From Desulfohalobiaceae bacterium (GTDB taxonomy: Bacteria; Desulfobacterota; Desulfovibrionia; Desulfovibrionales; Desulfothermaceae): a stretch of DNA of 20,125 bases. The DNA lies in NCBI GenBank assembly GCA_021737615.1, contig JAIPDR010000053.1:1-20125 (forward strand), read 5' to 3'. Position numbers and translations under genes: made by a program. The notes beneath the pieces are model-generated. The model searched no databases. It had not been told where the DNA came from and was given only the letters and a program-made list of their open reading frames with translations. Of the stretch, positions 1,352 to 18,475 are shown one piece after another (position 1 is the first letter of the stretch; every line of letters starts with the position of its first letter).

Positions 1352-1404
1352 AGGGCTTGACATTTTGCAACGAAAATGCAAATTTTCAAAAAAGAGGCGA
1401 AAAC

Positions 1405-1786: not shown

Positions 1787-1801
1787 AATCAAGAGTCAAT
1801 T

Positions 1802-1846
1802 CCTTTAGGCACTTTAGTTCATTTATCAACTTGAGGCACTTCTTCT
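1802..1846. repeat. Arm of the AAGTGCCTAAAGT hairpin-element family overlapping the 3' end of the PAS kinase gene
   Basis: cctttaggcactttagttcatttatcaacttgaggcacttcttc aligns with the right arm of the element at 15917-15967. Positions 1827-1844 are the exact reverse complement of 6339-6356 (18 nt). The arm encodes EEVPQVDK plus the stop codon. Confidence 0.85.
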
Positions 1847-4800
1847 CTCCCGTCCAGCACCTCCCTCACTTTTCCGGCGATACCTTCCCGCTGAAAGGGT
1901 TTCATGAGTACGGCCCGGATCCCCTTTTCCTTGAGATTCTCCCTGGTAATCCGTTCGCTGAATCCAGTGCAGATGATCACGGGTAGATCCGGCCGGATGG
2001 CCAGCAACCGCAGGGTCAAGTCCTCCCCGGTCATCTGCGGCATGTCCATGTCGGTGATAACCAGATCAAAGGCTTCCGGGTCTGCGGCAAAGACCTCCAG
2101 GGCCTCGAGACTCCCGGTTCGGGCCTCGACCCGATAACCGAGGCCCTCGAGCATCCGCCTGCCGATTCGGACAATGGAGGGTTCGTCGTCCACCAGGAGA
2201 ATACGTTCGGTTCCGGCCTGGAGGGAGGCTTCCGGTTTGGATCGAGGGCCTTCTTCCGCCTCGAGTGCCGGCAGGTAAACCCGAAAGGTCGAGCCCCGGC
2301 CCGGCTCGCTATAGACCGAGATCATGCCTCCGTGCTCCTTGACAATGCCATAGGCCGTGGACAGGCCCAAACCGGTGCCCTTGTGTTTGTCCTTGGTGGT
2401 AAAGAAAGGTTCGAAGATCCGCTGCCTGACCTCCGGCGACATGCCGGGGCCGGTATCGCTGACGGTCAGACGAAGATATTCGCCCGGCTCCATATCGGCA
2501 TCCCGCTTTGTGAATCCTGCATCCAGGTCCGTGACCGAGAGTCCAATCTCAAGAACACCCCCGGTCTCGGCCATGGCCTGGGCCGCGTTGGTGCAGAGAT
2601 TCATCAAGACCTGATGCAGCTGGGAGGGATCACCGGAAACCAAGGGCAGATTCCCCTGAATTTCCCGGCGAATCTCAATGCCGGCCGACAGCGTGGCCTG
2701 GAGCATCTTCACGCTTTCTTTGACCAGGGCCTGGAGTTCCACTGGTTCTTTGTCTCCTTTTTGTTTTCGACTGAAAGCCAAGATCCGCTGCACCAGATCC
2801 GCAGCCCGGTTTCCGGCTTTGAGGATCTCATGCAGATCCCGATGAACCGGGCTGCCCGGTTTGGCCTCCGCAGCGGCCAGCTGGGCCGTGCCAATGATTG
2901 CGGTCAAAATATTGTTGAAATCATGAGCGATACCCCCGGCCAGGGTGCCGATGGCCTCCATTTTCTGGGCCTGCAGAAGTTTGACTTCCAGGTCCTGTTT
3001 CTCCTGTTCAGCCATTTTCCAGTCCGTGATATCACGGGCCAGGCCCTGTACACCCAGGACCTTGCCCAGAGCGTCTTTGCGCAGGGCGGCATTGGTGGAG
3101 ACCCAGACCAGGGAGCCGTCCCGGGCGGGCATTTCCGCCTGAAAATCCTTGAGTTCCCCGGTTTCTTGCAGCGCCGCCAGAAGATCCTCCCGCTGCTCAG
3201 GAATGCGGTAAAATCGAGACATTTGCTCGCCCAGAACCTCTTCCGGGGCATAGCCCAGGATATCCCTAACCGACGGAGAAATAACCGTGATGCGGCCCTT
3301 AGCGTCCGTACGGTAAAAAATGTCCGTGATACTGTAAAAAATATCCTGATATTCCTGCCGGCTTTGCCGCAGAGATCGTTCCATGTCTTTGCGCCGGCTG
3401 ATGTCCTGAACCATGACCTGCACGGCCGGCTGGCCCTCGTAGCTCAGGGCCGTGGCCATGACCTCGACGTCGATGGCCTGCCCGTCCAGGCGGACATAAC
3501 GGTCTTCCACCGGATAGAGACCGGTCTCCCCGGCCAGCATGCGCCGGATTCTGTCCCTTGCCGCGTCCCAATTGTCCGGGTGAATGATCTCCTTGATCGG
3601 CTTGCCCATAAGCTCTTCCGGGGAAGCGGCCCCGATGATCTCCGCCCCGGCCTGATTGCTGAAAACCACCCGTCCCCCGGCATGCACGCAGATCCCCACC
3701 GGCGAGACCTCGATCAGGTTGCGGTAGCGGGCCTCACTCTCCTGGAGCAATTGCTCGGCCTTTTTCAAGCTGCTGATATCGGTGTGGGTGCCGACCACCC
3801 GGACCGCCTTTCCCTGCTCATCATACGAAAAAACCTTGCCCCGGCCCAGGATCCACTTCCAGTGCCCGGATTTCGTCTCCAGCCTGAACTCTTTTTCAAA
3901 AGGCTCGGATTTCTGTGCAATGTGCTCAAGAATGCCTGCCTCGACACCTGCTCTGTCCTCCGGATGCAAAAGACCGGCCCAGGTCTCGTAGCTCTGGGGC
4001 AGCTCATAAGGCGTATAGCCGAGCATGGTGAAATAGCGAGGACTGAAATAGACCTCCCCGGTCCGGACATTCCAGTCCCAGAGGCCGTCATTACTGGCTT
4101 CCAGGGCAAAGGTGAGGCGCTCTTCACTTTTTTTCAGGGCCTCTTCCATGTCAATTTTTTCAGTGACATCCTCGGCCACCTTCACGAAATGAGTGATCGA
4201 GCCGTCTTCAGCAAACATGGGTGAGATGGAGGCCTGCTCCCAATAGAACTTATCATTTTTTTTCCGGTTAGAGAACATCCCCCGCCACTCCCGCCCTGAG
4301 AGCAGGGCCTCAAGCATTTCTTCAGCCTCTTTCTCCGATTGTTCACCCAATTCCATGGCCTTCCGGCCCAGAATCTCTGCGGCGGTATAGCCAGTTATTT
4401 GCTCAAACTTGGGATTCACGTACTCAATGTTGCCTTCACCATCGGTGATCATGACGATGTTCGGGCTTTGTTCGACGGCAGCGGACAATTTTCGAATTTC
4501 TCTCTCCGCCTCCTTGCGCCTGGCCAGCTCCGCCTCCAGGTCCTGCATCTTCTTTTCCAGCTTCTGTACCAAGCGCTGGCTGTAGAGTTTGTAGGTCTCT
4601 TCTTCTGCTCGCTGAGCCGGCTGACCCGGCTCAAGGCCTCGGGCCTCGGCTTCCTCCATCACCGCCTGGACTGCCTTGAGGAAATCGTTCGGCTGCATCG
4701 GCTTGCGCAGGAAGCGGTCCGCCCCCAGCTTAAGGGCAAAAGTCTCGTCCTTGTCGTCCACATACGTGGCCGTGTAAAAGATGAAAGGAATGTTTCGCAG

Positions 4801-5013
4801 GGCCTCGTTGCCCTTGCAGTGCTTGCAGAGCTGGAATCCGTCCATGACCGGCATGAGGATGTCGGCAATGATCAGGTCAAAGGGCTCGGCCTGGAGTTTG
4901 TCCAGGGCTTCCTGGCCGTTTGCAGCCGTGACGGTCTCATACCCCTTGGCCTGGAACATGGTCTGGAGCAGGTAGAGGTTTTCCAGCTTGTCGTCGACGA
5001 TGAGGGCCTTCAT
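1819..5013 (-). CDS. Hybrid sensor histidine kinase: REC - coiled coil - 4 PAS - HisKA - HATPase_c - REC
   Basis: 1064-aa ORF. ATG 5013 follows GGAGAG. The N-terminal receiver has VDD...DLIIADILMP. Four PAS-like blocks follow. The H-box is IAHDFNNILTAI and the HATPase G-boxes are DTGPGM and GTGLGLS. The C-terminal receiver has LLVDDE...DLVITDMDMP...LMKP. Confidence 0.92.
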   Translation of the reverse strand: MKALIVDDKLENLYLLQTMFQAKGYETVTAANGQEALDKLQAEPFDLIIADILMPVMDGFQLCKHCKGNEALRNIPFIFYTATYVDDKDETFALKLGADRFLRKPMQPNDFLKAVQAVMEEAEARGLEPGQPAQRAEEETYKLYSQRLVQKLEKKMQDLEAELARRKEAEREIRKLSAAVEQSPNIVMITDGEGNIEYVNPKFEQITGYTAAEILGRKAMELGEQSEKEAEEMLEALLSGREWRGMFSNRKKNDKFYWEQASISPMFAEDGSITHFVKVAEDVTEKIDMEEALKKSEERLTFALEASNDGLWDWNVRTGEVYFSPRYFTMLGYTPYELPQSYETWAGLLHPEDRAGVEAGILEHIAQKSEPFEKEFRLETKSGHWKWILGRGKVFSYDEQGKAVRVVGTHTDISSLKKAEQLLQESEARYRNLIEVSPVGICVHAGGRVVFSNQAGAEIIGAASPEELMGKPIKEIIHPDNWDAARDRIRRMLAGETGLYPVEDRYVRLDGQAIDVEVMATALSYEGQPAVQVMVQDISRRKDMERSLRQSRQEYQDIFYSITDIFYRTDAKGRITVISPSVRDILGYAPEEVLGEQMSRFYRIPEQREDLLAALQETGELKDFQAEMPARDGSLVWVSTNAALRKDALGKVLGVQGLARDITDWKMAEQEKQDLEVKLLQAQKMEAIGTLAGGIAHDFNNILTAIIGTAQLAAAEAKPGSPVHRDLHEILKAGNRAADLVQRILAFSRKQKGDKEPVELQALVKESVKMLQATLSAGIEIRREIQGNLPLVSGDPSQLHQVLMNLCTNAAQAMAETGGVLEIGLSVTDLDAGFTKRDADMEPGEYLRLTVSDTGPGMSPEVRQRIFEPFFTTKDKHKGTGLGLSTAYGIVKEHGGMISVYSEPGRGSTFRVYLPALEAEEGPRSKPEASLQAGTERILLVDDEPSIVRIGRRMLEGLGYRVEARTGSLEALEVFAADPEAFDLVITDMDMPQMTGEDLTLRLLAIRPDLPVIICTGFSERITRENLKEKGIRAVLMKPFQREGIAGKVREVLDGREEVPQVDK
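4500..5013. repeat. Copy 1 of a ~514-bp direct duplication (REC + coiled-coil module)
   Basis: Collinear with 5825-6338 at a constant offset of 1325 nt. By eye there are only scattered substitutions, and the stretch 4800-4990 versus 6125-6315 is almost identical. Confidence 0.9.
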
Positions 5014-5027
5014 GCGCTCTCCATATC

Positions 5028-5212
5028 ACATTTTGGATTTTGGATTGCGGACCTTCGGATTTTGGCCTATGCCCCGGCTTCCGTCTAGTAGAGCCTACAG
5101 CTCGAAGAGAAGGATTGCGGATAGATTTCAAGAAGAAAATTTTGGTTTTTTCTCATAATAACCAGCTCTTATTCTTCATCTTAACGATCCAAAATCCGCA
5201 ATCCAAAATCCT
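5028..5212. repeat. Spacer bracketed by inverted heptamer arrays, with a conserved core
   Basis: Arrays are 5028-5065 (acattttggattttggattgcggaccttcggattttgg) and 5186-5212 (gatccaaaatccgcaatccaaaatcc). Positions 5035-5051 are the exact reverse complement of 5195-5211 (17 bp). The right array overlaps the HD-GYP stop (5211-5213) and the left array ends 14 nt from the kinase ATG. Core 5127-5187 is homologous to 9601-9662 and, inverted, to 14058-14118. Confidence 0.9.
5155..5184 (-). promoter_or_regulatory. Sigma-70-like hexamer pair inside the conserved core (speculative)
   Basis: The minus strand reads TTAAGA-18 nt-TATTAT. The equivalent positions in the other copies read TTAAGA-18-TATCTG (9600s, minus strand) and GGAAGA-18-CTATAT (14060s, plus strand). 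There is no experimental support and the 18-nt spacer is suboptimal. Confidence 0.2.
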
Positions 5213-6338
5213 AAAAGCTGCCGGCATCGAAAGAAAAGCCTTTGTCCAGATACAGCCTGAGGCAGGCATCCACTGCTCCTGGATCGTACCTGATGCCCCG
5301 GCCCTGCTCGATCTCCTCCAATGCCTGATCCAAATCCAAGGCCGTACGGTAGGGCCGATGAGAGGTCATGGCCTCGACCACGTCGGCCACGGCCATGATA
5401 CGGGCTTCCAACAAGATATCCTTTTCGGACAGGCCCTGGGGATAACCGGAGCCATCCAGTCGCTCGTGATGCTGGAACACGGTCCGGGCGATGGGCCAGG
5501 GGAAGTCGATGTCCTTCAGGATGTCATAACCCGTCTGGGAATGGTTTTGAATCAGGCTGTATTCCATATCTGACAAGCGGACTGATTTGGATAGGATTTC
5601 CGCAGGCACCGCGATCTTTCCAAGATCGTGGATCATGCCTGCCAGAGAGACTCCCTTTTTCTGTTGTTCAGGAAGGGCCAATTCCCCGGCAATGGCCCGG
5701 GCGAGCCTGGCGACGCGGCTCTGGTGCCCGGATGTATAAGGGTCACGCAATTCGACCATTCTGGCGGTGGCCTTGACTGTTCCCTCCAAGGCCTTCCACA
5801 GTTGGGCATGAGCTTTCTGTAGGTTCTCCTCCGCTTGCTTGCGGCCGGCCAGCTCCACTTCCAGATCCTGCATCTTCTGTTCCAGCTTCTGCACCAAGCG
5901 CTGGCTGTAGAGTTTGTAGGTCTCTTCTTCTGCTCGCTGGGCCGGCTGGCCCGGCTCAAGGCCTCGGGCCTCGGCTTCCTCCATCACCGCCTGGGCTGCC
6001 CCGAGAAAGCCGTTCGGCTGCATGGGCTTGCGCAGGAAGCGGTCCGCACCCAGCTTCAAAGCAAAGGCCTCGTCTTTTTCATCCACATACGTGGCCGTGT
6101 AAAAGATGAAAGGAATGTTTCGCAGGGCCTCGTCGCCCTTGCAGTGCTTGCAGAGCTGAAATCCGTCCATGACCGGCATCAGGATGTCGGCAATGATCAG
6201 GTCAAAGGGCTCGGCCTGGAGTTTGTCCAGGGCTTCCTGGCCGTTTGCAGCCGTGACGGTCTCATACCCCTTGGCCTGGAACATGGTCTGGAGCAGGTAG
6301 AGGTTTTCCGGCTTGTCGTCGACGAGGAGGATTTTCAT
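5211..6338 (-). CDS. Response regulator with HD-GYP domain (RpfG-like c-di-GMP phosphodiesterase)
   Basis: ORF 5211..6377. I place the start at ATG 6338 (MKILLVDDKPENLYLL) because it aligns with the MKALIVDDKLENLYLL start of the paralogous module and GAGG lies 8 nt upstream. The longer ORF starts at a GTG inside a repeat. The HD-GYP motifs HDLGK and HHERLDGSGYPQGL are intact. Confidence 0.9.
   Translation of the reverse strand: MKILLVDDKPENLYLLQTMFQAKGYETVTAANGQEALDKLQAEPFDLIIADILMPVMDGFQLCKHCKGDEALRNIPFIFYTATYVDEKDEAFALKLGADRFLRKPMQPNGFLGAAQAVMEEAEARGLEPGQPAQRAEEETYKLYSQRLVQKLEQKMQDLEVELAGRKQAEENLQKAHAQLWKALEGTVKATARMVELRDPYTSGHQSRVARLARAIAGELALPEQQKKGVSLAGMIHDLGKIAVPAEILSKSVRLSDMEYSLIQNHSQTGYDILKDIDFPWPIARTVFQHHERLDGSGYPQGLSEKDILLEARIMAVADVVEAMTSHRPYRTALDLDQALEEIEQGRGIRYDPGAVDACLRLYLDKGFSFDAGSF
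5825..6338. repeat. Copy 2 of the REC + coiled-coil module duplication
   Basis: See 4500-5013. The protein segments are near-identical from LVDDK through QRLVQKLE.KMQDLE.ELA.RK.AE. Confidence 0.9.
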
Positions 6339-6356
6339 AAGAAGTGCCTCAAGTTG
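6339..6356. repeat. Solo arm of the AAGTGCCTAAAGT family immediately upstream of the HD-GYP start
   Basis: aagaagtgcctcaagttg is the exact reverse complement of 1827-1844. Confidence 0.85.
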
Positions 6357-6368
6357 TTTTACATTGTG

Positions 6369-6695
6369 AATCTCCACATTTTGGATTTTGGATTGCGGAA
6401 TTCAGAGTCATGATTTTGAGACTATTTGCTTTTTCTCGCGGTTTTTATCGAAGATACGATTATTGCGATAATTTCATCGTTTTCTTTCATGAGAGCAGGT
6501 ACCGAGTTCGTTTCAAGAATTTTCATCTCCTCTATGATCTCAAGCCAAAACAATGTTTCATCGGCTTCTTCTTCCACTATGGCCAATTTTGAAATAAAAT
6601 CAGCTACAACACCATCCTCCAATCTTCATTCCCCAATCCCTCAGGGGCTTAGTCCAAAGTCCACTTCCCCAATCCAAAATCCGCAATCCAAAATC
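6369..6695. repeat. Inverted heptamer arrays bracketing the four-helix-bundle gene remnant
   Basis: Arrays are 6369-6399 (aatctccacattttggattttggattgcgga) and 6669-6695 (ccaatccaaaatccgcaatccaaaatc). Positions 6384-6399 are the exact reverse complement of 6680-6695 (16 bp). The right array abuts the receiver stop codon (6694-6696). Confidence 0.9.
6422..6622 (-). pseudogene. C-terminal half of a four-helix-bundle protein (23S rRNA intervening-sequence protein family), N-terminal half missing
   Basis: The 66-aa ORF has a TTG as first codon and no ATG. The sequence ...DFISKLAIVEEEADETLFWLEIIEEMKIL...ENDEIIAIIVSSIKTARKSK matches helices 3-4 of the ~120-aa family (..EA.ET.YWLELL..). Upstream sequence in all frames is heptamer repeat, not helices 1-2. 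Confidence 0.6.
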
Positions 6696-7158
6696 ACAGA
6701 TATCGCCTGACCTCGTCCACAAACGATCCGGTATCAATCGGTTTTTCAATATAGCCGTCACAGCCGGCCGCAAAGGTCTTTTCCCGATCGCCCTTCATGG
6801 CATAGGCGGTCATGGCCACTACAGGCATACGCTTCATTTTGGATTTTGGATCTTGGATTTTGGATTCTTCTTTATTCTGTAATCCGGATTCCAAATTCCG
6901 AATTCGCCTCGTGGCCTCATACCCGTCCAGTTTGGGCAACTGCATATCCATCAGAACCAAATCGGGCTTCTTTTGAATGGCCTTTTGCACGCCCTCCTCT
7001 CCATCCCTGGCCTCCAAGACTTCAAAGCCGGCAATTTCCAGTAGAAATCTGGCCAGATACAAGTTTTTCTCCTCATCCTCAACGATCAAGACCTTCTTAT
7101 TCTGCGGCGAAAAATCAGGATTATAGCCCTTGGTGTTCATCATGCTCCATCCTTTCAT
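6694..7158 (-). CDS. Single-domain CheY-like response regulator with an expanded loop
   Basis: 154-aa ORF with ATG at 7158. Alternative starts at 7143/7140 have a better SD (AAGGATGGAG). REC motifs are VLIVEDEE, DLVLMDMQLP, VVAMTAYAMKGD and YIEKP. The loop between RRIRNLE and PVVAMTA is about twice its usual length (see 6835-6905). Confidence 0.88.
   Translation of the reverse strand: MKGWSMMNTKGYNPDFSPQNKKVLIVEDEEKNLYLARFLLEIAGFEVLEARDGEEGVQKAIQKKPDLVLMDMQLPKLDGYEATRRIRNLESGLQNKEESKIQDPKSKMKRMPVVAMTAYAMKGDREKTFAAGCDGYIEKPIDTGSFVDEVRRYL
6835..6905. repeat. Miniature heptamer element inside the receiver CDS, in frame
   Basis: The minus strand reads cggaatttggaatccggatt-acagaataaagaag-aatccaaaatccaagatccaaaatccaaaatg. 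That is an array, an AGAATAA(A)GA core and an inverse array. It translates as NLESGLQNKEESKIQDPKSKMK. Confidence 0.85.
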
Positions 7159-7222
7159 TTTCTTGACTTTATCAACAAATATTAAACAGAATCCCGATTA
7201 TTTTCTCATAATAGTTATTTCC

Positions 7223-7341
7223 GTAAGTGCCTAAAATTAAGCGTTCTGTGTTTCATCGTTTCCCTATTGTCAATGTCTTCCTCTTCCAATTCTGCCAACT
7301 TTAGACACTTTCGTTCACTTACAAACTTGAGTCACTTCGTC
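7223..7341. repeat. ~119-bp hairpin (MITE-like) element, AAGTGCCTAAAGT family
   Basis: The left arm is gtaagtgcctaaaattaagcg (7223-7243). The right arm is ccaactttagacactttcgttcacttacaaacttgagtcacttcgtc (7295-7341). The right arm contains the last six codons (RSDSSL) and the stop codon (7319-7321) of the upstream kinase. Confidence 0.8.
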
Positions 7342-9454
7342 TCCCTCCTTCTCCCAAAGCCTTTTTGATATCCCGCAACAGATCTTCCCGGCTGGATTGC
7401 TGCTTCTGGATGATATTCTCGATCTTGCTGTTGAGCCAGGCCACTTCTTCCTGGGTCAACTTTTTACCGGAAACAATAATAATCGGGATATGCTTGGTGG
7501 GTTCTTCCTGTTTCAACCTGCCGATGACCTCAAAGCCGTCCACCTCCGGCATCATCAAGTCCAGGATGATCAGATCCGGGGCCTGCTCCGAGACCCTGTC
7601 CAGCCCCTCCTGCCCGCCATAGGCCTTTCTGACCCTGTAGCCGTTGATCTCTTCCAGGTATCTGGACAAGAGCTCCACGGCCCGGGCATCATCGTCCACG
7701 ATCAGGATATCGAAGATAGGCCGCATTTTCTTGAGCCGATCCAGCTCCCGGGTCAACCGGTCCTTGTCGATCGGTTTGACCAGGTATTCCACGGCTCCGA
7801 GGGAGAGGCCCAGCTCCCGGTTGTCCAGGATGGAGATGCAGATAACCGGAATGTTTTCGGTTTCAGGATCGTTTTTGAGTTCTTCCAGGATGTCCCAGCC
7901 ATCCCGGCCGGGCATGACGATATCCAGGGTCACGGCGAAGGGTTTGAATTTCCGGGCCAGCTGCAGGGCCTCCAGACCGTTGTAGGCCTGGATGACTTCA
8001 TAACCTTCGGCCTGGAGGTAGGTTGTAAGGATCTCCTGGGCCTCCAGCTCGTCGTCGATGGTCAGGATCAATTTCCTGGTCTGATCCAGGGTTTCAGGAG
8101 AGACAGCAGGCGGCCTGGCAGCCGGACCGGCCTCCTGGACGGGAATGTTGAAAAAAAAGCAGGAGCCCTGGCCATATTCGCTGTTCACCCCAATGGACCC
8201 GCCCATCATCTCCACCATTTTCTTGCAGATGGCCAGGCCCAGTCCTGTGCCCCCGGGTTTTTCCTTAAGCGGACCGTCGATCTGCTTGAATTCGTCAAAG
8301 ACCTCCTCCAGGTGCTCGGGCCGGATGCCCAGACCGGTGTCGGACACGCTGAAGCGGATCAGGGCCGGGCCGGCCGGTTCCACCCTCAGCTCTATCCGGC
8401 CGGAGCTGGTAAATTTTACGGCGTTGGACAGCATGTTGATCAAGACCTGCTTGATGCGGTTCTTGTCATTGTACAAGCCGGAGGGGACACCATCGGCTAC
8501 ATTCACAAAAAAATTTAAACCCTTATCCTGAACCAGGGGAGAGAACATGCCCTGGACCGTGTCAACAAGGCTTTGGACATCGAATTCAGCAGGCTGGATC
8601 TCGATCTTGCCGGCCTCGATCTTGGACAGGTCCAGGACGTCGTTGATCAGGCCCAAGAGGTGCTGGGCGCTGCCGTAGACCATGTTCAGCTGTTTTTTTT
8701 GTTCCGCATTGAGCTCGCCCGCCAATCCCTCGAGGATGATGCCGCTGAAGCCGATTATGGAGTTCAGGGGCGAGCGCAGTTCGTGGCTCATATTGGCCAT
8801 AAACTGGGACTTGAGCCGGCCGGCCTCTTCCAGGCGCTGGTTGGCCTTTTCCAGCTCCTGTTTCTTTTCCTTGAGTTCCGTGTTGACCCGGGTCAACTCT
8901 TCCTGACCGGCCCGCAGTTCATCCAGGGCCTGCAACAGGTCCTGGTTTTGCTGCTGGACTTCTGCAAACGCGGACCTGGGTCCCCCGGCTGCCAGCCCGG
9001 AGGTGAGGCGCTGGATATCTGCAGGGCCCCAAGGTTCCCGGCCCTCGGGAAGGGCCTTTCCCATGAGCACGCGGGTGCCCTGGCCCGGCCTGGAATCGAT
9101 CTCAAAATGGTCCATGAGCCGCCTGGCCCCGGCAAGGCCGATGCCCAGCCCGCTTTTGGAGGCATAGCCTTGCTTTAAGACGGCCTCCAGATCGGCAATC
9201 CCGGGGCCTTGGTCCTCGAAAGACATGCACAGCATCTGCGGCGAGGCCTCCAGGTCCAACTGGAAATCCAGCTTGCCGTCCCCGGCGTACTGGTAAACAT
9301 TGCGGGCCAGCTCGGACACAGCCGTGGTGATCCGGGTCTGATCCTGGGAGGTAAAGCCGATCAATCCGGCGATCTCCCTGGAGCGCTGCCTGGACAGAAT
9401 CACGTCGTCCTCGAAACGGATCTGAATGCTGAGGATCTTTGTTGGCATCTTCAT
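7319..9454 (-). CDS. Hybrid histidine kinase with N-terminal RsbT-like GHKL domain: RsbT-like - coiled coil - HisKA - HATPase_c - REC - REC
   Basis: ORF 7319..9562. Candidate ATG starts are 9454, 9448, or the repeat-encoded in-frame ATG 9493. The N-terminal domain reads QTRITTAVSELARNVYQYAGDGKL...DQGPGI...SGLGIGLAGARRLMDHFEIDSRPGQGTRV, which resembles RsbT as I recall it from B. subtilis. It is followed by MSHELRSPLNSI (H-box), the HATPase N/G boxes, and two receivers (LDIVMPGRDG and LDLMMPEVDG). Confidence 0.88.
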   Translation of the reverse strand: MKMPTKILSIQIRFEDDVILSRQRSREIAGLIGFTSQDQTRITTAVSELARNVYQYAGDGKLDFQLDLEASPQMLCMSFEDQGPGIADLEAVLKQGYASKSGLGIGLAGARRLMDHFEIDSRPGQGTRVLMGKALPEGREPWGPADIQRLTSGLAAGGPRSAFAEVQQQNQDLLQALDELRAGQEELTRVNTELKEKKQELEKANQRLEEAGRLKSQFMANMSHELRSPLNSIIGFSGIILEGLAGELNAEQKKQLNMVYGSAQHLLGLINDVLDLSKIEAGKIEIQPAEFDVQSLVDTVQGMFSPLVQDKGLNFFVNVADGVPSGLYNDKNRIKQVLINMLSNAVKFTSSGRIELRVEPAGPALIRFSVSDTGLGIRPEHLEEVFDEFKQIDGPLKEKPGGTGLGLAICKKMVEMMGGSIGVNSEYGQGSCFFFNIPVQEAGPAARPPAVSPETLDQTRKLILTIDDELEAQEILTTYLQAEGYEVIQAYNGLEALQLARKFKPFAVTLDIVMPGRDGWDILEELKNDPETENIPVICISILDNRELGLSLGAVEYLVKPIDKDRLTRELDRLKKMRPIFDILIVDDDARAVELLSRYLEEINGYRVRKAYGGQEGLDRVSEQAPDLIILDLMMPEVDGFEVIGRLKQEEPTKHIPIIIVSGKKLTQEEVAWLNSKIENIIQKQQSSREDLLRDIKKALGEGGRRSDSSL
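7361..8850. repeat. Copy 1 of a ~1.5-kb duplicated transmitter module (HisKA-HATPase-REC-REC)
   Basis: Collinear with 15983-17480 at an offset of 8622-8631 nt with a few small indels. Long identical nucleotide runs occur, for example ctcgatcttgccggcctcgatcttggacaggtccaggacgtc. The protein segments are roughly 85% identical by eye. Confidence 0.9.
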
Positions 9455-9691
9455 ATTGCGGATCTTCCGATTTTTGATTTTGGATCTCCACATTTTGGAT
9501 TTTGGATTGCGGAATGCTGATTGCGGATTTTCCGATTTTTCCCGCTTTATGTCGCTTCCCAACTTTAGTCACTTCTTCGCTCTGCAATATTCACTATAGG
9601 CTTTAAGAAAAAGTTTTTGGATTTATGCCAGATAACCAACTCTTATTCTTTGTCTTAACAATCGAAAATCCAAAATCCAAAATCTAAAATT
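9455..9691. repeat. Spacer bracketed by inverted heptamer arrays, with a conserved core
   Basis: Arrays are 9455-9541 and 9659-9691. Positions 9492-9508 (attttggattttggatt) are the exact reverse complement of 9667-9683 (17 bp). Core 9601-9662 is homologous to 5127-5187. The spacer also carries a solo AAGTG-family arm at 9558-9580 (cccaactttagtcacttcttcgc). Confidence 0.9.
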
Positions 9692-9700
9692 CTATAGTCA

Positions 9701-10750: not shown

Positions 10751-11157
10751 TTCCACATGATCATGCATACCCGGGTCCCTTGTCCTGCTTGGGATTCTAT
10801 CCAAAATTCATCCACCAGCCTTTTGCTGCCGGGCAGGCCCAGACCCAGGCCCTTGTTCGTGCTGTACCCTTTTTGCATGGCCAGCTGCACATCCTTCAGA
10901 CCCGGCCCTGTATCCGTAAATATCAGGCGCAGACCGAAACGGACTGCATTGTCCACGGCCTCCAGGAGCGCCTTCCCCTCCCGGCCGTATCGAGCCGTAT
11001 TGCGGGCGATCTCACTGGCCGCCGTGACCAGCTTGGTCTGCAGGATCAACGAAAACCCGAACTCCTTTGCCCATTCGCGGACGACCCGCCTGACCCGGGC
11101 CACATCCTGATCAGTGCGGACCGGCAAGGTTTCATGCTTCCGTACGGTCAGGGACAC
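10747..11157 (-). CDS. rsbT: RsbT-like serine kinase / switch protein
   Basis: This lies in ORF 10747..11313. The likely start is GTG 11157 (GGAGAAGG just upstream), overlapping the rsbS 3' end by 26 nt. The ~136-aa sequence includes ...AASEIARNTARYG...DTGPGL...KGLGLGLPGSKRLVDEFWIESQAGQGTRV, a single GHKL domain of RsbT size. The start codon is uncertain. Confidence 0.8.
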   Translation of the reverse strand: MSLTVRKHETLPVRTDQDVARVRRVVREWAKEFGFSLILQTKLVTAASEIARNTARYGREGKALLEAVDNAVRFGLRLIFTDTGPGLKDVQLAMQKGYSTNKGLGLGLPGSKRLVDEFWIESQAGQGTRVCMIMWK

Positions 11158-11533
11158 GGCCCTTCTCCCGGGAAGACGATCCCAGCCTCTTGGCAAGCAG
11201 GGCCATGCCTTTGTCCACATCCAGGGCGGTCCGGATGCCTTTGATGGCCAGGCCCAGCTCGACAATGGTGATGGCCACCTCCGGCTGCATACCCACCAGG
11301 ACCGTTTCCGCATCCAGAAGGCCGGCCGTGGCCGCCATGTCTCCCAGGGTGCGGCCCATGAAGGAATCGATCATCTGCAGGGCTGAGATGTCGATCAATA
11401 CCCCCCTGGCCCCGGTTTTTTGAATCTGCTCGGCCAGGTCATCCCGCAGGGCCAGGGCCAAGCGGTCGTGCAAGTCCACTTGAATGATCACCAAAAGAAA
11501 ATTCCCCCACTTGAGGATCGGAATCCGTTCCAT
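11132..11533 (-). CDS. rsbS: RsbS-like single-STAS stressosome scaffold protein
   Basis: This lies in ORF 11132..11626. The start is ATG 11533 (MERIPILKWGNFLLVIIQ), since upstream codons are heptamer repeat. It is a STAS fold with DISALQMIDSFMGRTL, where the Ser sits at the expected phospho-acceptor position. Confidence 0.85.
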   Translation of the reverse strand: MERIPILKWGNFLLVIIQVDLHDRLALALRDDLAEQIQKTGARGVLIDISALQMIDSFMGRTLGDMAATAGLLDAETVLVGMQPEVAITIVELGLAIKGIRTALDVDKGMALLAKRLGSSSREKGRVPDRTEA

Positions 11534-11579
11534 GCTAGCGCCTTTCAGAAGAGGTTTTGATTGACTATTGATTATTTCA

Positions 11580-11650
11580 GCAATCGACAATCCAACATGT
11601 GAAGATCCAAAATCTCCAATCCGCAATCCAAAATCCGCAATCCAAAATCC
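11580..11650. repeat. Unpaired 71-bp heptamer array filling most of the rsbR-rsbS spacer
   Basis: gcaatcgacaatccaacatgtgaagatccaaaatctccaatccgcaatccaaaatccgcaatccaaaatcc starts directly after the rsbR stop codon (11651-11653). I found no complementary array before the rsbS start. Confidence 0.9.
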
Positions 11651-12520
11651 CTAGAATCTGCCCGGCTCCCCCTTGACCACATAACCGCTGCGTTCCAAGG
11701 CCAGGGCAAGCGCATCCGCCAGGGTGGCCTTGGTGGGAATTCCCCCCAGCTCCAGGCCCATGTCCACCATGGACTGGGCGATCATCGGCCGGATCCCGCT
11801 GATGATGCACTCGGCGCCCATGAGACCGGCCGCGGATACGGTCTTGATCAGATGCTGGGCCACCAGGGTGTCCACGGTGGGCACGCCGGTGATATCCATA
11901 ATGGCGATGGTGGATTTGGTTTCCACAATCATCTGCAAAAGGTTTTCCATGACCGTCTGGGTGCGGGCGCTGTCCAGGGTCCCGATCAGGGGGACCGCCA
12001 GGACCCCGTGCCAGAGCTGGACCACAGGCGTGGACAGCTCCATGATCTCCTCCTGCTGGCGCCGGATGACCTGTTCCCGGTGCTGAATAGAAGCTTCGGT
12101 GGTATACAGGCCCAGCTTGTCCAGCAGCCGGGTCGCGGTCCAGATTTCCTGCACCAGTTCCTCTGGATTCTCGGCCAGAAGGCTCTGGAGGAGGTACATC
12201 AGGGGCTGTTTAAAGGAAAAGATACAGGTGGCCACCTCCGAGGGGGTAAAGCCTTTTTCCCCCCGGGTGCGGGAGATCCTGGACAGCATGTCCCTGACTT
12301 CTTTCCAGGCTTCAGCGCTTGTATCAACGACTCCGCCCGCCTGCAGGGCCGAGCGGAAAAGACTGATAAATTCAGCAGCTTCTTCCCGCAGTGCGGTTTC
12401 ATCAATCAAATCCGGCCGCAAGACGCCGGAACTCAATTGTTCCCGGATCCAGTCCTTCAACAGCTCCTGTTCATACTTTTCAAGTATCTCCGGCAGGCGC
12501 GTTGTCTCTTGATCATTCAT
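11651..12520 (-). CDS. rsbR: RsbR-like stressosome sensor (N-terminal helical sensory domain + C-terminal STAS)
   Basis: 289-aa ORF. ATG 12520 has AGGAGG 7 nt upstream. The C-terminal STAS reads STPVVQLWHGVLAVPLIGTLDSARTQ...IMDITGVPTVDTLVAQHL, with Thr at the RsbR phospho-site position. The N-terminal ~150 aa resemble RsbR-type sensory domains (ILEKYEQELLKDWIREQL). Confidence 0.88.
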   Translation of the reverse strand: MNDQETTRLPEILEKYEQELLKDWIREQLSSGVLRPDLIDETALREEAAEFISLFRSALQAGGVVDTSAEAWKEVRDMLSRISRTRGEKGFTPSEVATCIFSFKQPLMYLLQSLLAENPEELVQEIWTATRLLDKLGLYTTEASIQHREQVIRRQQEEIMELSTPVVQLWHGVLAVPLIGTLDSARTQTVMENLLQMIVETKSTIAIMDITGVPTVDTLVAQHLIKTVSAAGLMGAECIISGIRPMIAQSMVDMGLELGGIPTKATLADALALALERSGYVVKGEPGRF

Positions 12521-12551
12521 CCTGAAACCTCCTGTTTTGAATTGAATATGG

Positions 12552-12592
12552 GGAAGAAGTGCCTAAAGTTTGAAAAAGTACCTGAAGGAATT
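12552..12592. repeat. Arm of the AAGTGCCTAAAGT family in the rsbR leader
   Basis: ggaagaagtgcctaaagtttgaaaaagtacctgaaggaatt contains two sub-repeats (aagtgcctaaagt and aagtacctgaagg). It may pair with the arm at 12846-12880 across a 250-bp insert. Confidence 0.75.
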
Positions 12593-12845
12593 GGCTATCG
12601 AATAAATCCACAAGTCACTCTCTCCGATCTGTAGGCTCTACGAGTAGGAAGCCGTCCATTAAGCCTTACTCTCTGACCCGTAGACTCCCGGGTCTACCCT
12701 CCAGCCTGTAAACCCTACGGGCTGTAAGCGGAACCGGGAGCCCTGTCTAAGCCAAGATTTTCTATATATTCCATCTCCGTTGCATACATTTTGATCTTTT
12801 GTCAAACTCAGGTCGTCCTCCGTCGATATCTTGAAAATCGAAAAT

Positions 12846-12880
12846 CCTATAGTTCACTTATCGACTTGAGGCGCTTCTTC
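12846..12880. repeat. Arm of the AAGTGCCTAAAGT family overlapping the 3' end of the SBP/4-Cys sensor gene
   Basis: Positions 12854-12880 (tcacttatcgacttgaggcgcttcttc) differ at only 3 of 27 positions from 1819-1845. The arm encodes EEAPQVDK plus the stop codon. Confidence 0.85.
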
Positions 12881-14020
12881 AAATTCAGAGTAGAGCAGGG
12901 CCTCGCAATCCGGGCAGATGCCGTGGGAAAATGTAGCTTCTGAGTGTTTCTTGATGAAGAATTCGATCTGGTTCCAGTAGCCCTGGTCGTCCCGGATCTT
13001 TTTGCAGTTGGCGCAGATTGGGATGAGCCCTTTCAAGGTCTTGACTTGGACCAGGGCTTCCTGGAGCCGGTTCCGCTCATTGAGAAGCGCAGTCTCAGCC
13101 GCAGTTTTCCGGGCGATTTCCTCCTCCAGGGTCGTATTACGTTCCTTCAATTCTCTGGTTTTGGATCTGACCTGCTGTTTCAAGACCAGGCTGAAGAGAG
13201 CAAACAGACAGCCCAGGCCGACTGCCGCGGCCAATCCGAAAAGCAAAGCCCTGGGCACCTCCCGTTCCACCCGCATGTCGAACCAGTGCTCCAGGGTCTG
13301 GTTGTAGAAGGAATTCCGGTCCTGCTTCAGGACGGAAAGCTGTTGATCAATAGCGGCCGCCAGGTCCTGGTTATGCCCTTTGGGAAAGGCGAATCTGAGT
13401 TCCACCGGGGCCAGGACGATGGGCGTCCGCCTGACCTCGTATTTGTCCTCCTCGGCCAGGCCGTAGAGCCTGCTGATGATCCCGGCCTCCGCCGCTCCCC
13501 GGTCCAGGGCTTGAAAGACTTCTTTGTAACCGCTGCAGAGCACATACTCGCAGGCAATGTTGAACTGCTTGAAGCGTTCAAAGGAGATACCCCCTTGCAT
13601 GACCGCGACTCTTTTGCCCTGAAGCTGCTCGACGTTTTCAATGTCCAATCCTGCGCGGCTGTAAATCCTAGCCCAGTTGGAGAGCACGGTCTCCCGGTTG
13701 AAGTCATACATTTCGGCCCGGTCCCGGCTATAGGCCACATCCACCATGATATCCAGCTTGCCGGCCCGCAGCCGGTCCAGGCACTGCTGCCAGGTCCCGG
13801 GCACATAGTCCAGGTCCCAGCCTTCCTGCCTCGCGATATCCCCCAGAAGATCCACCCAGATTCCGGCGGGCCTGCCGGCCTCATCCAGGTAGACCTTGGG
13901 CTTGTTCTGATAGATGCCCACCCGGACCGTCTCGGCAGCAGACCCTGAAGCCGGGAGCCAGAACAGGAGCAACAGGGCGATGAGCAGCCGTATGAAATTT
14001 TGGATTTTGGATCTCCACAT
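12854..14020 (-). CDS. Membrane sensor: signal peptide - periplasmic SBP_bac_3 (Venus-flytrap) domain - TM - coiled coil - short 4-Cys C-terminal domain
   Basis: ORF 12854..14101 has a TTG as first codon. The likely start is ATG 14020 (MWRSKIQNFIRLLIALLLLFWLPASGSAA, signal-peptide-like). The SBP domain begins VRVGIYQNKPKVYLDEAG...DIMVDVAYSRDRAEMYDF. The TM segment is ALLFGLAAAVGLGCLFALFSLVL. The C-terminus is ICANCKKIRDDQGYWNQIEFFIKKHSEATFSHGICPDCEALLY. Confidence 0.85.
   Translation of the reverse strand: MWRSKIQNFIRLLIALLLLFWLPASGSAAETVRVGIYQNKPKVYLDEAGRPAGIWVDLLGDIARQEGWDLDYVPGTWQQCLDRLRAGKLDIMVDVAYSRDRAEMYDFNRETVLSNWARIYSRAGLDIENVEQLQGKRVAVMQGGISFERFKQFNIACEYVLCSGYKEVFQALDRGAAEAGIISRLYGLAEEDKYEVRRTPIVLAPVELRFAFPKGHNQDLAAAIDQQLSVLKQDRNSFYNQTLEHWFDMRVEREVPRALLFGLAAAVGLGCLFALFSLVLKQQVRSKTRELKERNTTLEEEIARKTAAETALLNERNRLQEALVQVKTLKGLIPICANCKKIRDDQGYWNQIEFFIKKHSEATFSHGICPDCEALLYSEFEEAPQVDK
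13090..13965. repeat. Copy 1 of a ~0.88-kb duplicated sensor module (SBP domain + TM + start of coiled coil)
   Basis: Collinear with 17542-18417 at an offset of 4452 nt. Identical runs of 40-60 nt occur, for example gccaggccgtagagcctgctgatgatcccggcctccgccgctcccc. The protein segments are roughly 85-90% identical by eye. Confidence 0.9.
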
Positions 14021-14247
14021 TTTGGATTTTGGATCTCCACATTTTGGATTTTGGATTAGGAAGACACAGAATAAGAACTGGTCTATATGGAATAAATCCA
14101 ATACCTTTTTCCTAAAGCATCTATCCCTCAGGGCCGGCCTCCAGCTCCGCTACGGGCCGGAGAGTAAAGTATACGCCCTGGAGAAAAGCCAAAATCGACC
14201 CTCTTTCTTTTTCCGCAATCCAAAATCCGCATTCCAAAATCCAAAAT
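13996..14247. repeat. Spacer bracketed by inverted heptamer arrays, with the conserved core in opposite orientation
   Basis: The left array (13996-14057) contains the 22-bp unit attttggattttggatctccac in 2.8 tandem copies (13997-14018, 14019-14040, 14041-14057). The right array is 14212-14247. Positions 14041-14055 are the exact reverse complement of 14233-14247 (15 bp). Core 14058-14118 is homologous to the reverse complement of 9601-9662. Confidence 0.9.
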
Positions 14248-14250
14248 TCT

Positions 14251-15783
14251 TCAAACGCTTTCCCACTCAAACCCCACGATATTCCGTTTCTCACTGGAAA
14301 ACTCCACCCCGATCAAATAGACCTCCTGCCCGGCGAATTTTTCCGCGTACCCCCTGGCCTTGATCTGTTCCAGGGCCCCGGCTTGATCCGTGAGCTCCAC
14401 CACCTTGAACTCGATCAGATAGATCCGGTCCTCAAAACGCAGGGTCAGGTCCATCCTGCCCTTGTTCGTCGGCTCTTCAGGATGGACGTCCAGCCCAAGG
14501 GCTGCAAAATAACAGTAGACAATGGAGGCGTAGTAGCCTTCATACCCGGCCAATTGGTTCTTGCGATACCAGTCATGGGGGATGGAGGCGAAAAAGGCCT
14601 GAAACAGCTCACGGAGCTTATCCAGGTCATTGACTGAGAGGGCATCCAGCAGATCGGACTGATTTCTGGTCTTGGCCAGGCGGGCCTGGGATAGTCCGTT
14701 CAAAATGGAGTTGGTCAGACTGGCCTTGACCTCCATGTTGGGGTAACCAAGGCGATACCGGCTAAAGGCCCCGGTCTGGGAAAAGCCCCTGATAGTCAAG
14801 TAGCCGGTCTGGAAAAGAAGGGCCTCCGCAACAATTGAATCGATATCAAAACTGCCCACGATTTCCTCTCCCACGGTCAGGTCTTCCACTTCCGGGATGC
14901 TGTACCGGCCCTCCTGCAGCAGTTTGACCAGAAAACCCGGGGTTCCGGTTTCAAACCAATAATTCCGAAATTCCTTAGAATCCAAATACAGCAGAATATC
15001 AAAAGGGTTATAGACCTCGTCTCCCAGCCAGTTGTACCCATTGTACCACTGTTGGACCTGATCCTTATCCACCCCGTCCAAACGATCCACAAAGACCGTC
15101 TCCAATTCCTGCTGGGTATATCCACAAATCGCTGAAAAGCGCTTATCCAGGGTGATGTCCTTGAGGTTGTTCAAACCGCTGAACAAGGAAACCTTGCTGA
15201 ATTTGGAGACCCCGGTGATGAATACGAATTCTAGATAGGGATCGGCATCCTTGATCACTGAGTAGTAGTTCTTGAGCTCCTCTCTGATTTCCACAGCTGT
15301 TGCCGGTTTTTCAATATTGTCCAGGATGGGCTTGTCATATTCGTCCACCAGGACCACCACTTTTTGGCCGAATTGCCTGCACAAGGTGTGGATCAGTTCG
15401 GCGAAGCGGCTTCTCAAATCATCATAGCTGAAAGAAATTTTGTATTCTTTCGCATGCTCGGATAATATATAGGTAAAAGATTGCTGAAGCTCCTCAATAG
15501 TTCTCAGCACTCCGGAGCCAAAGCTGATATGGACCACCGGATTCGTCCGGTCCCAATCCCAGTGATCAAAAAGATACTGTCCTTGAAACAAGTCCTTTTT
15601 GCCTTGATAGGCGGCCTTGATGGTGCTCAGGAACAAACTCTTGCCGAAGCGCCTAGGCCGGGAGAGGAAGTAATAATCCCCGGCCTGGGCCAGCTCGCTG
15701 ATAAACCGTGTTTTATCGACATAGTAACAGTTGCTTTCAATCAGCTTTTCAAAGGTCTGAATGCCGATGGGCAGCTTTTTCAT
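14251..15783 (-). CDS. AAA-ATPase-like protein with C-terminal PD-(D/E)XK nuclease domain (AAA-ATPase_like + PDDEXK_9 architecture)
   Basis: 510-aa ORF. ATG 15783 has AGGAG 9 nt upstream. The N-terminus MKKLPIGIQTFEKLIESNCYYVDKTRFI...FLSRPRRFGKSL is the family hallmark. The C-terminus GRMDLTLRFEDRIYLIEFKV carries the D...ExK nuclease motif. Confidence 0.88.
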   Translation of the reverse strand: MKKLPIGIQTFEKLIESNCYYVDKTRFISELAQAGDYYFLSRPRRFGKSLFLSTIKAAYQGKKDLFQGQYLFDHWDWDRTNPVVHISFGSGVLRTIEELQQSFTYILSEHAKEYKISFSYDDLRSRFAELIHTLCRQFGQKVVVLVDEYDKPILDNIEKPATAVEIREELKNYYSVIKDADPYLEFVFITGVSKFSKVSLFSGLNNLKDITLDKRFSAICGYTQQELETVFVDRLDGVDKDQVQQWYNGYNWLGDEVYNPFDILLYLDSKEFRNYWFETGTPGFLVKLLQEGRYSIPEVEDLTVGEEIVGSFDIDSIVAEALLFQTGYLTIRGFSQTGAFSRYRLGYPNMEVKASLTNSILNGLSQARLAKTRNQSDLLDALSVNDLDKLRELFQAFFASIPHDWYRKNQLAGYEGYYASIVYCYFAALGLDVHPEEPTNKGRMDLTLRFEDRIYLIEFKVVELTDQAGALEQIKARGYAEKFAGQEVYLIGVEFSSEKRNIVGFEWESV

Positions 15784-15797
15784 AAGGACAGGCTCCT

Positions 15798-15844
15798 GAT
15801 TTTGGATTGCGGATTTTGGATTGCGGATTGCAGATTTTGGATTT
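15798..15844. repeat. Heptamer array just upstream of the AAA-ATPase-like gene's RBS
   Basis: gattttg gattgcg gattttg gattgcg gattgca gattttg gattt is about 6.7 units. It lies 14 nt from the ATG at 15783. Confidence 0.9.
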
Positions 15845-15847
15845 GAC

Positions 15848-15967
15848 GGAAGTGCCTAAAGTCGGGGAACACCTAAAGTATTCGGAATTATAAGAGCGGT
15901 CGCTGCAGTCTCCGTTCCGTCAACTTTAGTCGCTTTAGTTCACTTCTCAACTTTAGCTCACTTCTTC
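15848..15967. repeat. ~120-bp hairpin (MITE-like) element, AAGTGCCTAAAGT family
   Basis: The left arm is ggaagtgcctaaagtcggggaacacctaaagtattcgg (15848-15885). The right arm is ccgtcaactttagtcgctttagttcacttctcaactttagctcacttcttc (15917-15967). The terminal ~15 nt are imperfect inverted repeats. The right arm encodes EEVS plus the stop codon (15953-15955) of the upstream kinase. Confidence 0.85.
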
Positions 15968-18460: not shown

Positions 18461-18475
18461 GTACAAGCTCTTCAC

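Follow-up and report, generated by a model that had tools for sequence, protein, structure and literature searches.

Stop-codon-donating repeats at the operon junctions of a Desulfohalobiaceae contig: probable relatives of the 23S rRNA intervening sequences

Contig JAIPDR010000053.1 of a Desulfohalobiaceae metagenome-assembled genome (MAG), analysed here over its entire 20.1 kb (20,125 nucleotides; hereafter the window), carries a dispersed family of short repeats from which four large sensor genes take their last codons and their stop codons. We propose, at a probability of roughly 0.6, that these elements are decayed members, or members lacking an open reading frame (ORF), of a horizontally spread family of intercistronic repeats that resemble the intervening sequences (IVSs) of 23S rRNA. 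Their anatomy matches that of the rRNA IVSs, which leads us to read them as members of an IVS-like family that occupies operon junctions and has passed between phyla. On this reading the donation of stop codons is a by-product of a selfish, junction-filling element and not a function specific to sensor genes.

The protein associated with the family belongs to PF05635 ('23S rRNA intervening sequence protein') and TIGR02436 ('four helix bundle protein'), which we take to be the 'S23p/IVS protein' family of the 23S rRNA intervening sequences and to be related to the Avd protein of diversity-generating retroelements. IVSs of 23S rRNA with an S23p ORF occur in Coxiella burnetii, Leptospira, Xanthomonas and Brucella. 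To our knowledge, the function and mode of spread of the S23p/four-helix-bundle proteins and of their rRNA IVSs have been unknown for more than 30 years.

Results

The 13-mer AAGTGNCTAAAGT occurs 12 times in the window when up to two mismatches are allowed, against 0.62 expected (standard deviation 0.83; maximum of 4 in 100 shuffles), an enrichment of about 20-fold. The matches (at 1322, 1802, 1829, 6342, 7225, 7298, 7325, 9562, 12557, 12864, 15850 and 15923) are without exception intergenic or within the final eight codons of a gene, and between them they cover every arm listed in a preliminary description of this DNA. The 13-mer sub-repeat proposed there is indeed present, but the true unit is shorter: the 13-mer falls within a degenerate tandem array that repeats every 9 nt and in which AAGTGNCTA alternates with AAGTTGANN, giving an effective period of about 18 nt, and which reads in register AAGTGNCTA, AAGTTGANN, AAGTGAACTA, AAGTGNCTA. 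A purine-rich head, GGRGRAGAAGAAG, precedes the array, and the 9-nt units contain TAA and TGA in two of the three reading frames.

All four large sensor genes, which lie on the minus strand, stop inside a copy of this repeat, and the stop positions, terminal peptides and domain assignments originally given for them held on checking, including the C-terminal REC domain of one gene as against the four-cysteine (4-Cys) domain of another. The REC-PAS-HisKA-HATPase-REC gene (1819-5013) ends in REEVPQVDK, of which EEVPQVDK and the TGA stop (1819-1821) are encoded by sense arm A (1795-1846, minus strand). The solute-binding protein (SBP)/4-Cys gene (12854-14101) ends in EEAPQVDK, encoded together with its TGA (12854-12856) by sense arm C (12846-12881, minus strand). 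The SBP-HisKA-HATPase-REC-REC gene (SBP-kinase; 15953-18475) ends in GGGEEVS, its TAA (15953-15955) lying within the unit AAGTGAGCTAAAGT, and the RsbT-kinase gene (7319-9562; HATPase_c_2 (RsbT-like)-HisKA-HATPase-REC-REC) ends in RRSDSSL. The final 27 nt of the first two genes (1819-1845 and 12854-12880) differ at 3 positions, as had been reported.

The two complete hairpin elements, both ORF-less and on the minus strand, have the coordinates and lengths previously claimed for them. Element 1 (7223-7341, 119 bp) lies between the stop of the RsbT-kinase (7319-7321) and a REC gene, with a 5' arm at 7290-7341 and a 3' arm at 7223-7238. Element 2 (15848-15967, 120 bp) lies between the stop of the SBP-kinase and the AAA-ATPase/PDDEXK_9 gene, with a sense 5' arm at 15915-15967, whose purine-rich head extends to about 15978, and an antisense 3' arm at 15848-15880. 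The loop of element 2 (15890-15912; ATAAGAGCGGTCGCTGCAGTCTC on the plus strand) is common to hairpins at unrelated sites in two other Desulfohalobiaceae MAGs, and the loop of element 1 is unrelated to it. Arm C is not an unrelated solo arm, but forms an inverted pair, about 290 nt apart, with antisense arm G (12552-12592, plus strand), which ends 36 nt before the ATG of the RsbR gene (12520).

That these C-terminal and stop codons derive from the element and not from an ancestral peptide is borne out by the occurrence of the same DNA in non-coding copies, in both orientations and in different frames, and by homologues that lack the tails. The 17-nt core AGAAGTGCCTCAAGTTG encodes EEVPQV at the end of the PAS-kinase, and an inverted, non-coding copy of it (shared over 17-19 nt) abuts the ATG of the REC-HD-GYP gene (6339-6357); further copies of the tail-coding repeat lie 5' of the RsbR and MscS genes. 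In the RsbT-kinase the element DNA is translated in another frame, giving RSDSSL and a stop, and the SBP-kinase stops early, at EEVS, because one extra base brings the TAA into frame. Comparison with homologues recovered the native C-termini of the 4-Cys domain and of the kinase. None of 55 homologues of the 4-Cys domain ends in EEAPQVDK, and their tails after C..C..LY are variable and unrelated. For the kinase C-terminus, the nearest homologues (identity 59-67%) finish in DIK(K/R)ALEKI(S/EG/EA), whereas the paralogues of the window end in DIKKALGGGEEVS and DIKKALGEGGRRSDSSL, that is, in ALGGGEEVS or ALGEGGRRSDSSL; about 3-6 native codons and the stop have therefore been replaced. The tail is thus element-derived, as first suggested, except that the part contributed by the element begins a few codons earlier, in the purine-rich head. 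A kinase at another locus (L085) that also ends in an element is a homologue of 35% identity and not an orthologue, and it does not date the insertion. A selenocysteine or read-through reading of the UGA and the hairpin that follows it was rejected, as the frame beyond the TGA meets a TAA within three codons.

Every intercistronic gap on the minus strand of the window opens with sense 9-mers or heptamers at the stop codon and closes with antisense copies just before the next ATG (opening junctions include TAG followed by GATTTTGGATTGCGG, TGA followed by TTTTGGATTGCGG and TAG followed by TGACTATAG). The repeats are therefore junction-filling and specific neither to sensors nor to gene 3' ends, and the same applies to the heptamers, which had been set apart as a first family. 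The earlier description, which centred on sensor genes and gene 3' ends, is therefore not supported in that form; the repeats of its 'second family' are real, but they represent, beside the heptamers, another type of arm in one kind of junction hairpin.

The heptamer arrays (GATTTTG/GATTGCG) themselves begin at stop codons (TAG followed by GATTTTG, TGA followed by TTTTGG) and recur inverted before the next ATG, forming inverted pairs that span the junction. They are found at 5187-5215/5030-5065, 6652-6696/6363-6417, 9655-9699/9455-9530, 11605-11650, 14198-14256/13982-14057 and 15797-15846.

Pattern scans for related loci (numbered L) covered one genome per species (104 matches) and metagenomes (120 matches); most hits were single chance matches, and the informative loci were chosen by motif density. 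Arrays of the 13-mer were found among the genomes in two other Desulfohalobiaceae MAGs (L009, L093 and L104; L069 and L085), two Bacteroidales MAGs (L016, L099), a Chloroflexota MAG (L002, L024), a Planctomycetia MAG (L083) and an unclassified bacterium (L064), and among the metagenomes at L164, L179, L223, L193, L167, L156, L155, L145, L124 and L109. The labels of the array-bearing MAGs comprise Desulfohalobiaceae, Bacteroidales, Chloroflexota, Planctomycetia, Calditrichia and Desulfobacterales, and the GC content of the array loci ranges from 37 to 58%. Perfect runs of 9-mers reach six copies of ACTTTAGTC (L099) and eleven of ACTTTAGGC (L226). Element 2 aligns over its full length, loop AGACTGCAGCGACCGCTCTTATA included, with elements at unrelated sites in L009, where it follows a TolC-like gene, and in L085; it is therefore a dispersed element and not a local duplication. 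Heptamers specific to each genome adjoin the same 9-mers elsewhere: GACTGAR at L016, TTGGGAT at L064, CAGTGAT at L223 and GGTTCAR at L237.

The tight fit to the junction recurs at these loci. The sense arm begins on the stop codon of a co-oriented upstream ORF, or typically 0-10 nt past it, and the inverted arm stops shortly before the next ribosome-binding site (RBS) or ATG. The same junction, TGA followed by AGAAGTGNCTAAAGTTG, is seen at L002, L083, L164, L093, L223 and L193, with near variants at L145, L179, L024 and L099. A co-oriented ORF lies upstream of 58 orientation runs. In 25 of these the start falls within -45 to +10 nt of the last base of that ORF's stop codon; most of the others are inverted partner arms.

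At the three array-richest loci (L164, L179 and L085) a gene for a PF05635/TIGR02436 protein of about 120 residues, for which 2RLD is the nearest solved structure, lies between the arrays. Six further PF05635 genes (L226, L228, L229, L237, L247 and L248) were picked by protein similarity and by the size of the surrounding contig only, and with these included the gene has sense arrays on its 5' side and antisense arrays on its 3' side in 9/9 loci. The flanking genes of the six are diverse: UDP-glucose dehydrogenase/sigma-54 activator, mgtE/recO (in two organisms), pmbA/tldD, HMGL-like/HTH-cupin and acyl-CoA dehydrogenase/enoyl-CoA hydratase. At four of the six the array begins on the upstream stop or at most 5 nt from it, for example TAA followed by GTGACTAAAGT or TAG followed by TGACTAAAGT, the exceptions being L237, where it begins about 30 nt past the stop, and L247, where the junction is ambiguous; the 3' arrays stop about 5-25 nt before the next start codon. 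Terminal inverted repeats enclose the loop or ORF in all cassettes sampled, and no PF05635-type gene was found in the approximately 200 loci holding only chance matches to the motif. Where one site is represented in several metagenomes (L237-L245), the protein is identical and the 3' array varies between 241 and 265 nt by whole heptamer or 9-mer units. Homologues of about 70% identity form thousands of clusters, and because many members of the family lie on contigs shorter than 1.5 kb, the arrays probably break assemblies. In L085 the four-helix-bundle gene, itself the passenger, ends in array-like sequence (2190-2221; GGGGAAGAAGTGATTGAATGA directly followed by AGAAGTGCCTAAAGT), and so it too takes its stop from the repeat.

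One cassette of the window (6339-6696) has this canonical layout, with a remnant of the gene inside inverted heptamer arms and a 9-mer arm abutting the next ATG. The remnant is a truncated ORF of 66 aa (6422-6622, minus strand) corresponding to the C-terminal half of the protein, the N-terminal 50 or so codons being missing. It matches positions 52-108 of the 109 of TIGR02436 (E 1.6e-10; 41 bits against a cut-off of 24), and tblastn and hidden Markov model (HMM) searches match it to the four-helix-bundle genes of L085, L164 and L179. On its 5' side the sense heptamer arm (6652-6696, minus strand; TGATTTTGGATTGCGGATTTTGGATTGG) overlaps the TGA of the REC gene (6694-6696) and is followed by a degenerate 9-mer unit; on its 3' side lie the antisense heptamer arm (6363-6417, minus strand), which reads CCGCAATCCAAAATCCAAAATG in the mRNA, and, as the terminal arm, antisense arm H (6339-6357, plus strand), which reads CAACUUGAGGCACUUCUU in the mRNA and abuts the ATG (6336-6338) of the REC-HD-GYP gene. 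Neither the two complete elements nor the solo arms contain an ORF, and an HMM search of the six-frame translation returned no more four-helix-bundle remnants anywhere in the window, the 290 nt that separate arms C and G included.

Relative to shuffled sequence, element 1 (z -2.17) and element 2 (-33.6 kcal/mol, z -1.65) are weakly more stable and arm A (z -0.17) forms no hairpin; among the relatives, clean ORF-less inverted pairs fold strongly (L009, z -4.6; L069, z -5.8; L002, z -8.1), and the minimum-energy structures of two folded cassettes close with a long arm-arm stem around the ORF. The elements are not classical intrinsic terminators, in agreement with the preliminary description: they have no U-tract, and no T runs lie 3' of the stems. 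A search for terminator-like sites found none at the elements (25 in the window against 24.2 in shuffles), and a terminator role was rejected. An Rfam scan of the window at E values up to 1 returned nothing relevant and no match to rRNA.

Discussion

A canonical member of the proposed family sits between two co-oriented genes. Its 5' arm opens with the purine-rich head GGRGRAGAAGAAG and continues with tandem copies of AAGTGNCTA, frequently in alternation with AAGTTGANN; this arm starts on the upstream stop codon or a few nucleotides from it. Its 3' arm, an inverted array (TAGNCACTT)n, ends just before the RBS and start codon of the downstream gene. The loop between them is either short and conserved, as in hairpins of about 120 nt such as that at 15848-15967, or holds a gene for a four-helix-bundle protein (PF05635/TIGR02436) of about 117 residues. 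By analogy with the rRNA IVSs, the arms would pair in the polycistronic mRNA into a long stem that RNase III can cut, and such a putative cut would free the loop and leave the cistrons on either side uncoupled. The arrays may grow, shrink and convert through slippage or recombination. By a neutral route the element could come to supply the stop codon and a short tail (EEVPQVDK, EEVS or RSDSSL); with TAA and TGA in two of the three frames of each unit, a gene could afford to lose the spacer and some dispensable codons at its C-terminal end. We infer that the family spreads horizontally, by a putative mobility mechanism.

Several points weigh against this interpretation. The counts for this genome cover a single contig, arm A is without an inverted partner downstream, and both hairpins of the window are only marginally more stable than shuffled sequence. 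The window contains no intact four-helix-bundle gene, and its remnant is about 35% identical to the array-flanked subfamily and has flanks that are mainly heptamers. Most array loci from the pattern scans carry no such gene within the 2-8 kb of sequence around them, and the arrays may therefore spread independently of it. In addition, the pattern used to find the loci included the GAAGAAG head, a possible source of bias in the junction statistics, the genes of the related loci were called by a simple longest-ORF rule, and the taxon labels are those of the MAG records.

Among the alternatives, the one to which we give most weight, while regarding it as rather unlikely, is that these are host-selected hairpins of the 3'-untranslated region comparable to repetitive extragenic palindromes (REPs) or bacterial interspersed mosaic elements (BIMEs), in which a stem at the stop codon protects the upstream mRNA from 3' exonucleases or modulates termination or ribosome release, the four-helix-bundle gene being an occasional passenger. 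In E. coli, REP elements in operons stabilise upstream mRNA and those near stop codons affect translation. The location right after stop codons, the missing U-tract, the strong hairpins of the relatives and the majority of array loci that have no protein gene would all suit such a role. However, one and the same sequence across phyla of very different GC content is not expected of a host-evolved stabiliser; moreover, one and the same site shows hypervariable array lengths, the copies in the window have decayed, the arms abut start codons equally, and where the PF05635 gene is present its link to the arrays is tight (9/9). We consider it improbable, and clearly more so, that a dedicated recombinase or transposase of the integron attC or REP-associated tyrosine transposase (RAYT) type inserts the element site-specifically at stop codons or gene 3' ends and replaces the native stop at integration. 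The precision of the junctions, at which the stop forms the first bases of a unit (TAA with GTG, TAG with TGA, TGA with AGAAG), the attC-like appearance of imperfect palindromes of 57-141 nt directly 3' of ORFs, and the recurrence of the same element at unrelated sites in three MAGs speak for insertion of this kind. Set against them, no integrase or Y1 transposase is encoded among the window genes or beside the arrays in the inspected loci, inspection of the boundaries revealed neither GTTRRRY/RYYYAAC core sites nor GTAG heads, the boundary in the kinases lies a few codons upstream of the point where homologues stop, and other copies lie 20-90 nt past the stop (L009, L069, L016 and L237).

Two further explanations concern the gene ends themselves, and we hold both to be very unlikely. 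The similar ends could simply have arisen if paralogous sensor genes were duplicated as segments that included their 3' flanks: 7345-7644 is 87% identical to 15967-16266 and other blocks are 82-88% identical, so the kinases associated with the two complete elements are recent paralogues. But the high identity ends at the element boundary, the loops of the two elements are unrelated, the PAS-kinase and the 4-Cys protein have a common tail on unrelated C-terminal domains, and copies occur inverted, non-coding, and in other genomes and phyla; frames, orientations and loops thus largely refute duplication in its pure form. The least credible explanation is that EEVP(Q/K)V has been conserved at the C-terminus as a peptide with a function of its own, perhaps as a tag or degron, to which the DNA repeat is secondary. 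Two proteins of the window and two of L085 do end in EEVPQVDK, EEAPQVDK, EEVPKVS and EEVPKVIK, but the same DNA is also read in another frame (RSDSSL), cut short (EEVS) or non-coding in either orientation, the stop precedes the array in most loci, and homologues lack the tail; the data on frame and orientation already refute the peptide-tag reading.

The closest known counterpart of the proposed IVS-like family is the IVS of the Coxiella 23S rRNA. There the loop houses the S23p ORF, RNase III cuts a terminal stem of 28 bp, and the sequence upstream of the ORF contains AGAAGA and tandem heptamers; the element is considered selfish and of unknown mobility (PMC4990558). The present cassettes are alike in their terminal inverted repeats, in the long stem around a PF05635-family ORF, in the decay of that ORF, and in the purine-rich AGAAGA-type stretch and tandem heptamers between stem and ORF. 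They are unlike it in their host site, which is the junction of protein-coding cistrons and not helix 25 or 45 of 23S rRNA (no copy was found in a 23S rRNA gene, all lying between protein-coding genes), and in their arms, which are 9-nt tandem arrays, conserved across phyla, that overlap stops and approach starts; many copies are, in addition, ORF-less.

The likeness to the REP, BIME and REPIN (paired REP) elements of Proteobacteria lies in the many short extragenic palindromes, often in inverted pairs within operons after stop codons, and in the lack of a U-tract. In contrast to these, the present arms are tandem 9-nt arrays that vary in length by whole units, have a sequence common to several phyla and are accompanied by a four-helix-bundle gene; no RAYT/Y1_Tnp domain was found among the window proteins or the array neighbours inspected, and the head is GGRGRAGAAGAAG and not of GTAG type. 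Other short intergenic tandem repeats are the cyanobacterial short tandemly repeated repetitive sequences and the TAACTGA heptamers. The latter, in Beggiatoaceae, Cyanobacteria and Bacteroidetes, show a patchy cross-phylum spread that suggests horizontal transfer, adjoin start codons, and sometimes overlap the upstream stop, since the unit carries stops (PMC4679880). Heptamers accompany the 9-mers in the window and at L016, L064, L223 and L237, but the present unit is of 9 nt and not 7, its inverted pairs span the whole junction, and the heptamers are a separate, co-occurring family; the link to PF05635 is not described in that report, in which neither 'S23' nor 'intervening sequence' appears (PMC4679880).

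Integron attC sites, too, are imperfect palindromes of about 60-140 bp right 3' of ORFs, often overlapping the stop and more conserved in structure than in the loop; they differ from the present elements, whose arms are tandem arrays and whose flanks are ordinary operon genes and not promoterless cassettes. By inspection there are no R'' (RYYYAAC) or R' (GTTRRRY) cores: the boundaries read GAAGAAGTG at one end and CACTTCTTC at the other, and GTTGAGA and GTTGGCA do not fit GTTRRRY. No integron integrase was found in the window or seen beside the arrays in the loci inspected. Rickettsia palindromic elements and Neisseria Correia elements are miniature inverted-repeat transposable elements that contribute coding sequence, and like them the present repeats are small palindromes that become part of host ORFs and transcripts; unlike them, they donate only the last few codons and the stop, with no transposase-type terminal repeats or target duplications identified. 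A search of the open-access literature found no description of the 13-mer or 9-mer, of four-helix-bundle cassettes between protein genes, or of IVS-like elements within operons that encode proteins.

New here are the presence of the S23p protein family in what are probably thousands of operon junctions, flanked by a 9-nt repeat conserved between phyla, and the rewriting of host gene 3' ends by its ORF-less hairpin derivatives. Binding assays can now make use of a defined nucleic-acid motif, (AAGUGCCUA)n, and RNase III assays of defined stems; the polymorphic sites lend themselves to population analysis. For annotation, it means that C-terminal tails such as EEVPKV are element-derived; for assembly, that contigs are probably broken by the arrays; and it affects how 'domain shuffling' is read among sensor kinases whose duplicated blocks end at arrays. 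More tentatively, a single horizontally transmitted system might punctuate operons in at least 5-6 phyla, combining conserved 9-nt arrays with genome-specific heptamers; its stop-to-start stems would be processed like those of rRNA IVSs, and the Avd-like protein encoded in the loop would bind the arrays, as RNA or single-stranded DNA, and drive or regulate spread or processing. If this were so, rRNA IVSs would be a special case of a general intervening element of mRNA and rRNA.

Additional observations

The genes of interest, from MscS to the SBP-kinase, all lie on the minus strand and follow one another as an MscS channel; REC-PAS-HisKA-HATPase-REC; REC-HD-GYP; a single REC; an RsbT-like HATPase fused to HisKA-HATPase-REC-REC; RsbT/SpoIIE, RsbT, STAS and RsbR; SBP_bac_3 with the 4-Cys tail; AAA-ATPase_like/PDDEXK_9; and SBP_bac_3-HisKA-HATPase-REC-REC. 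Two smaller sets of sense units lie among them on the same strand. Units E (1322-1351; CCTAAAGTTTGTAAGTGACTAAAAGGAGG) reach the MscS gene (ATG at 1312) and run into its Shine-Dalgarno sequence. Unit F (9558-9580; GAAGAAGTGACTAAAGTTG), whose 19-mer recurs identically in L009 and L069, belongs to the gap that separates the RsbT/SpoIIE gene from the RsbT-kinase and that consists entirely of repeats. In the 506 nt that separate arm A from units E lies a truncated AAA_14 ATPase fragment (1357-1710, plus strand), probably a pseudogene remnant.

Other modules recur in the junction loops. One of about 40 nt (TATAGGCTTTAAGAAAAAGTTTTTGGATTTATGCCAGATA) is present in either orientation, at 9595-9634 and, inverted, at 14084-14123, as well as at 3100-3145 of L009, and adjoins a second module, GTTAAGAYRAAGAATAAGAGYTGGTTAT (5160-5186, 9635-9662 and 14058-14082). 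A GTAG/CTAC-rich palindromic segment (for example GTAGACCCGGGAGTCTAC), which looks like a further REP-like family, occurs in two junction loops, at 5075-5110 and 12619-12654 (inverted, 86%) and at 12640-12740, and takes up a large part of the 290 nt that lie between arms C and G.

The AAA-ATPase_like/PDDEXK_9 gene (14251-15783, minus strand) is 74% identical over its first 110 aa to L069 5293-5630. In both genomes it has a 9-mer hairpin and heptamer-like sequence upstream, with different upstream genes, and it may move with the repeats; as a general partner of the arrays it was rejected, L069 alone among the related loci having one.

Further similarities link the sensor genes to one another. 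The REC N-termini at 4504-5013 and 5829-6338 are 91% identical, the HisKA-HATPase-REC-REC blocks at 7345-8850 and 15967-17480 are 82-88% identical, and the SBP domains at 13115-13414 and 17567-17866 are 77% identical. The pattern suggests recent duplications or domain shuffling among the sensors, and, as the blocks end at repeat arrays, that the arrays may have served as recombination breakpoints.

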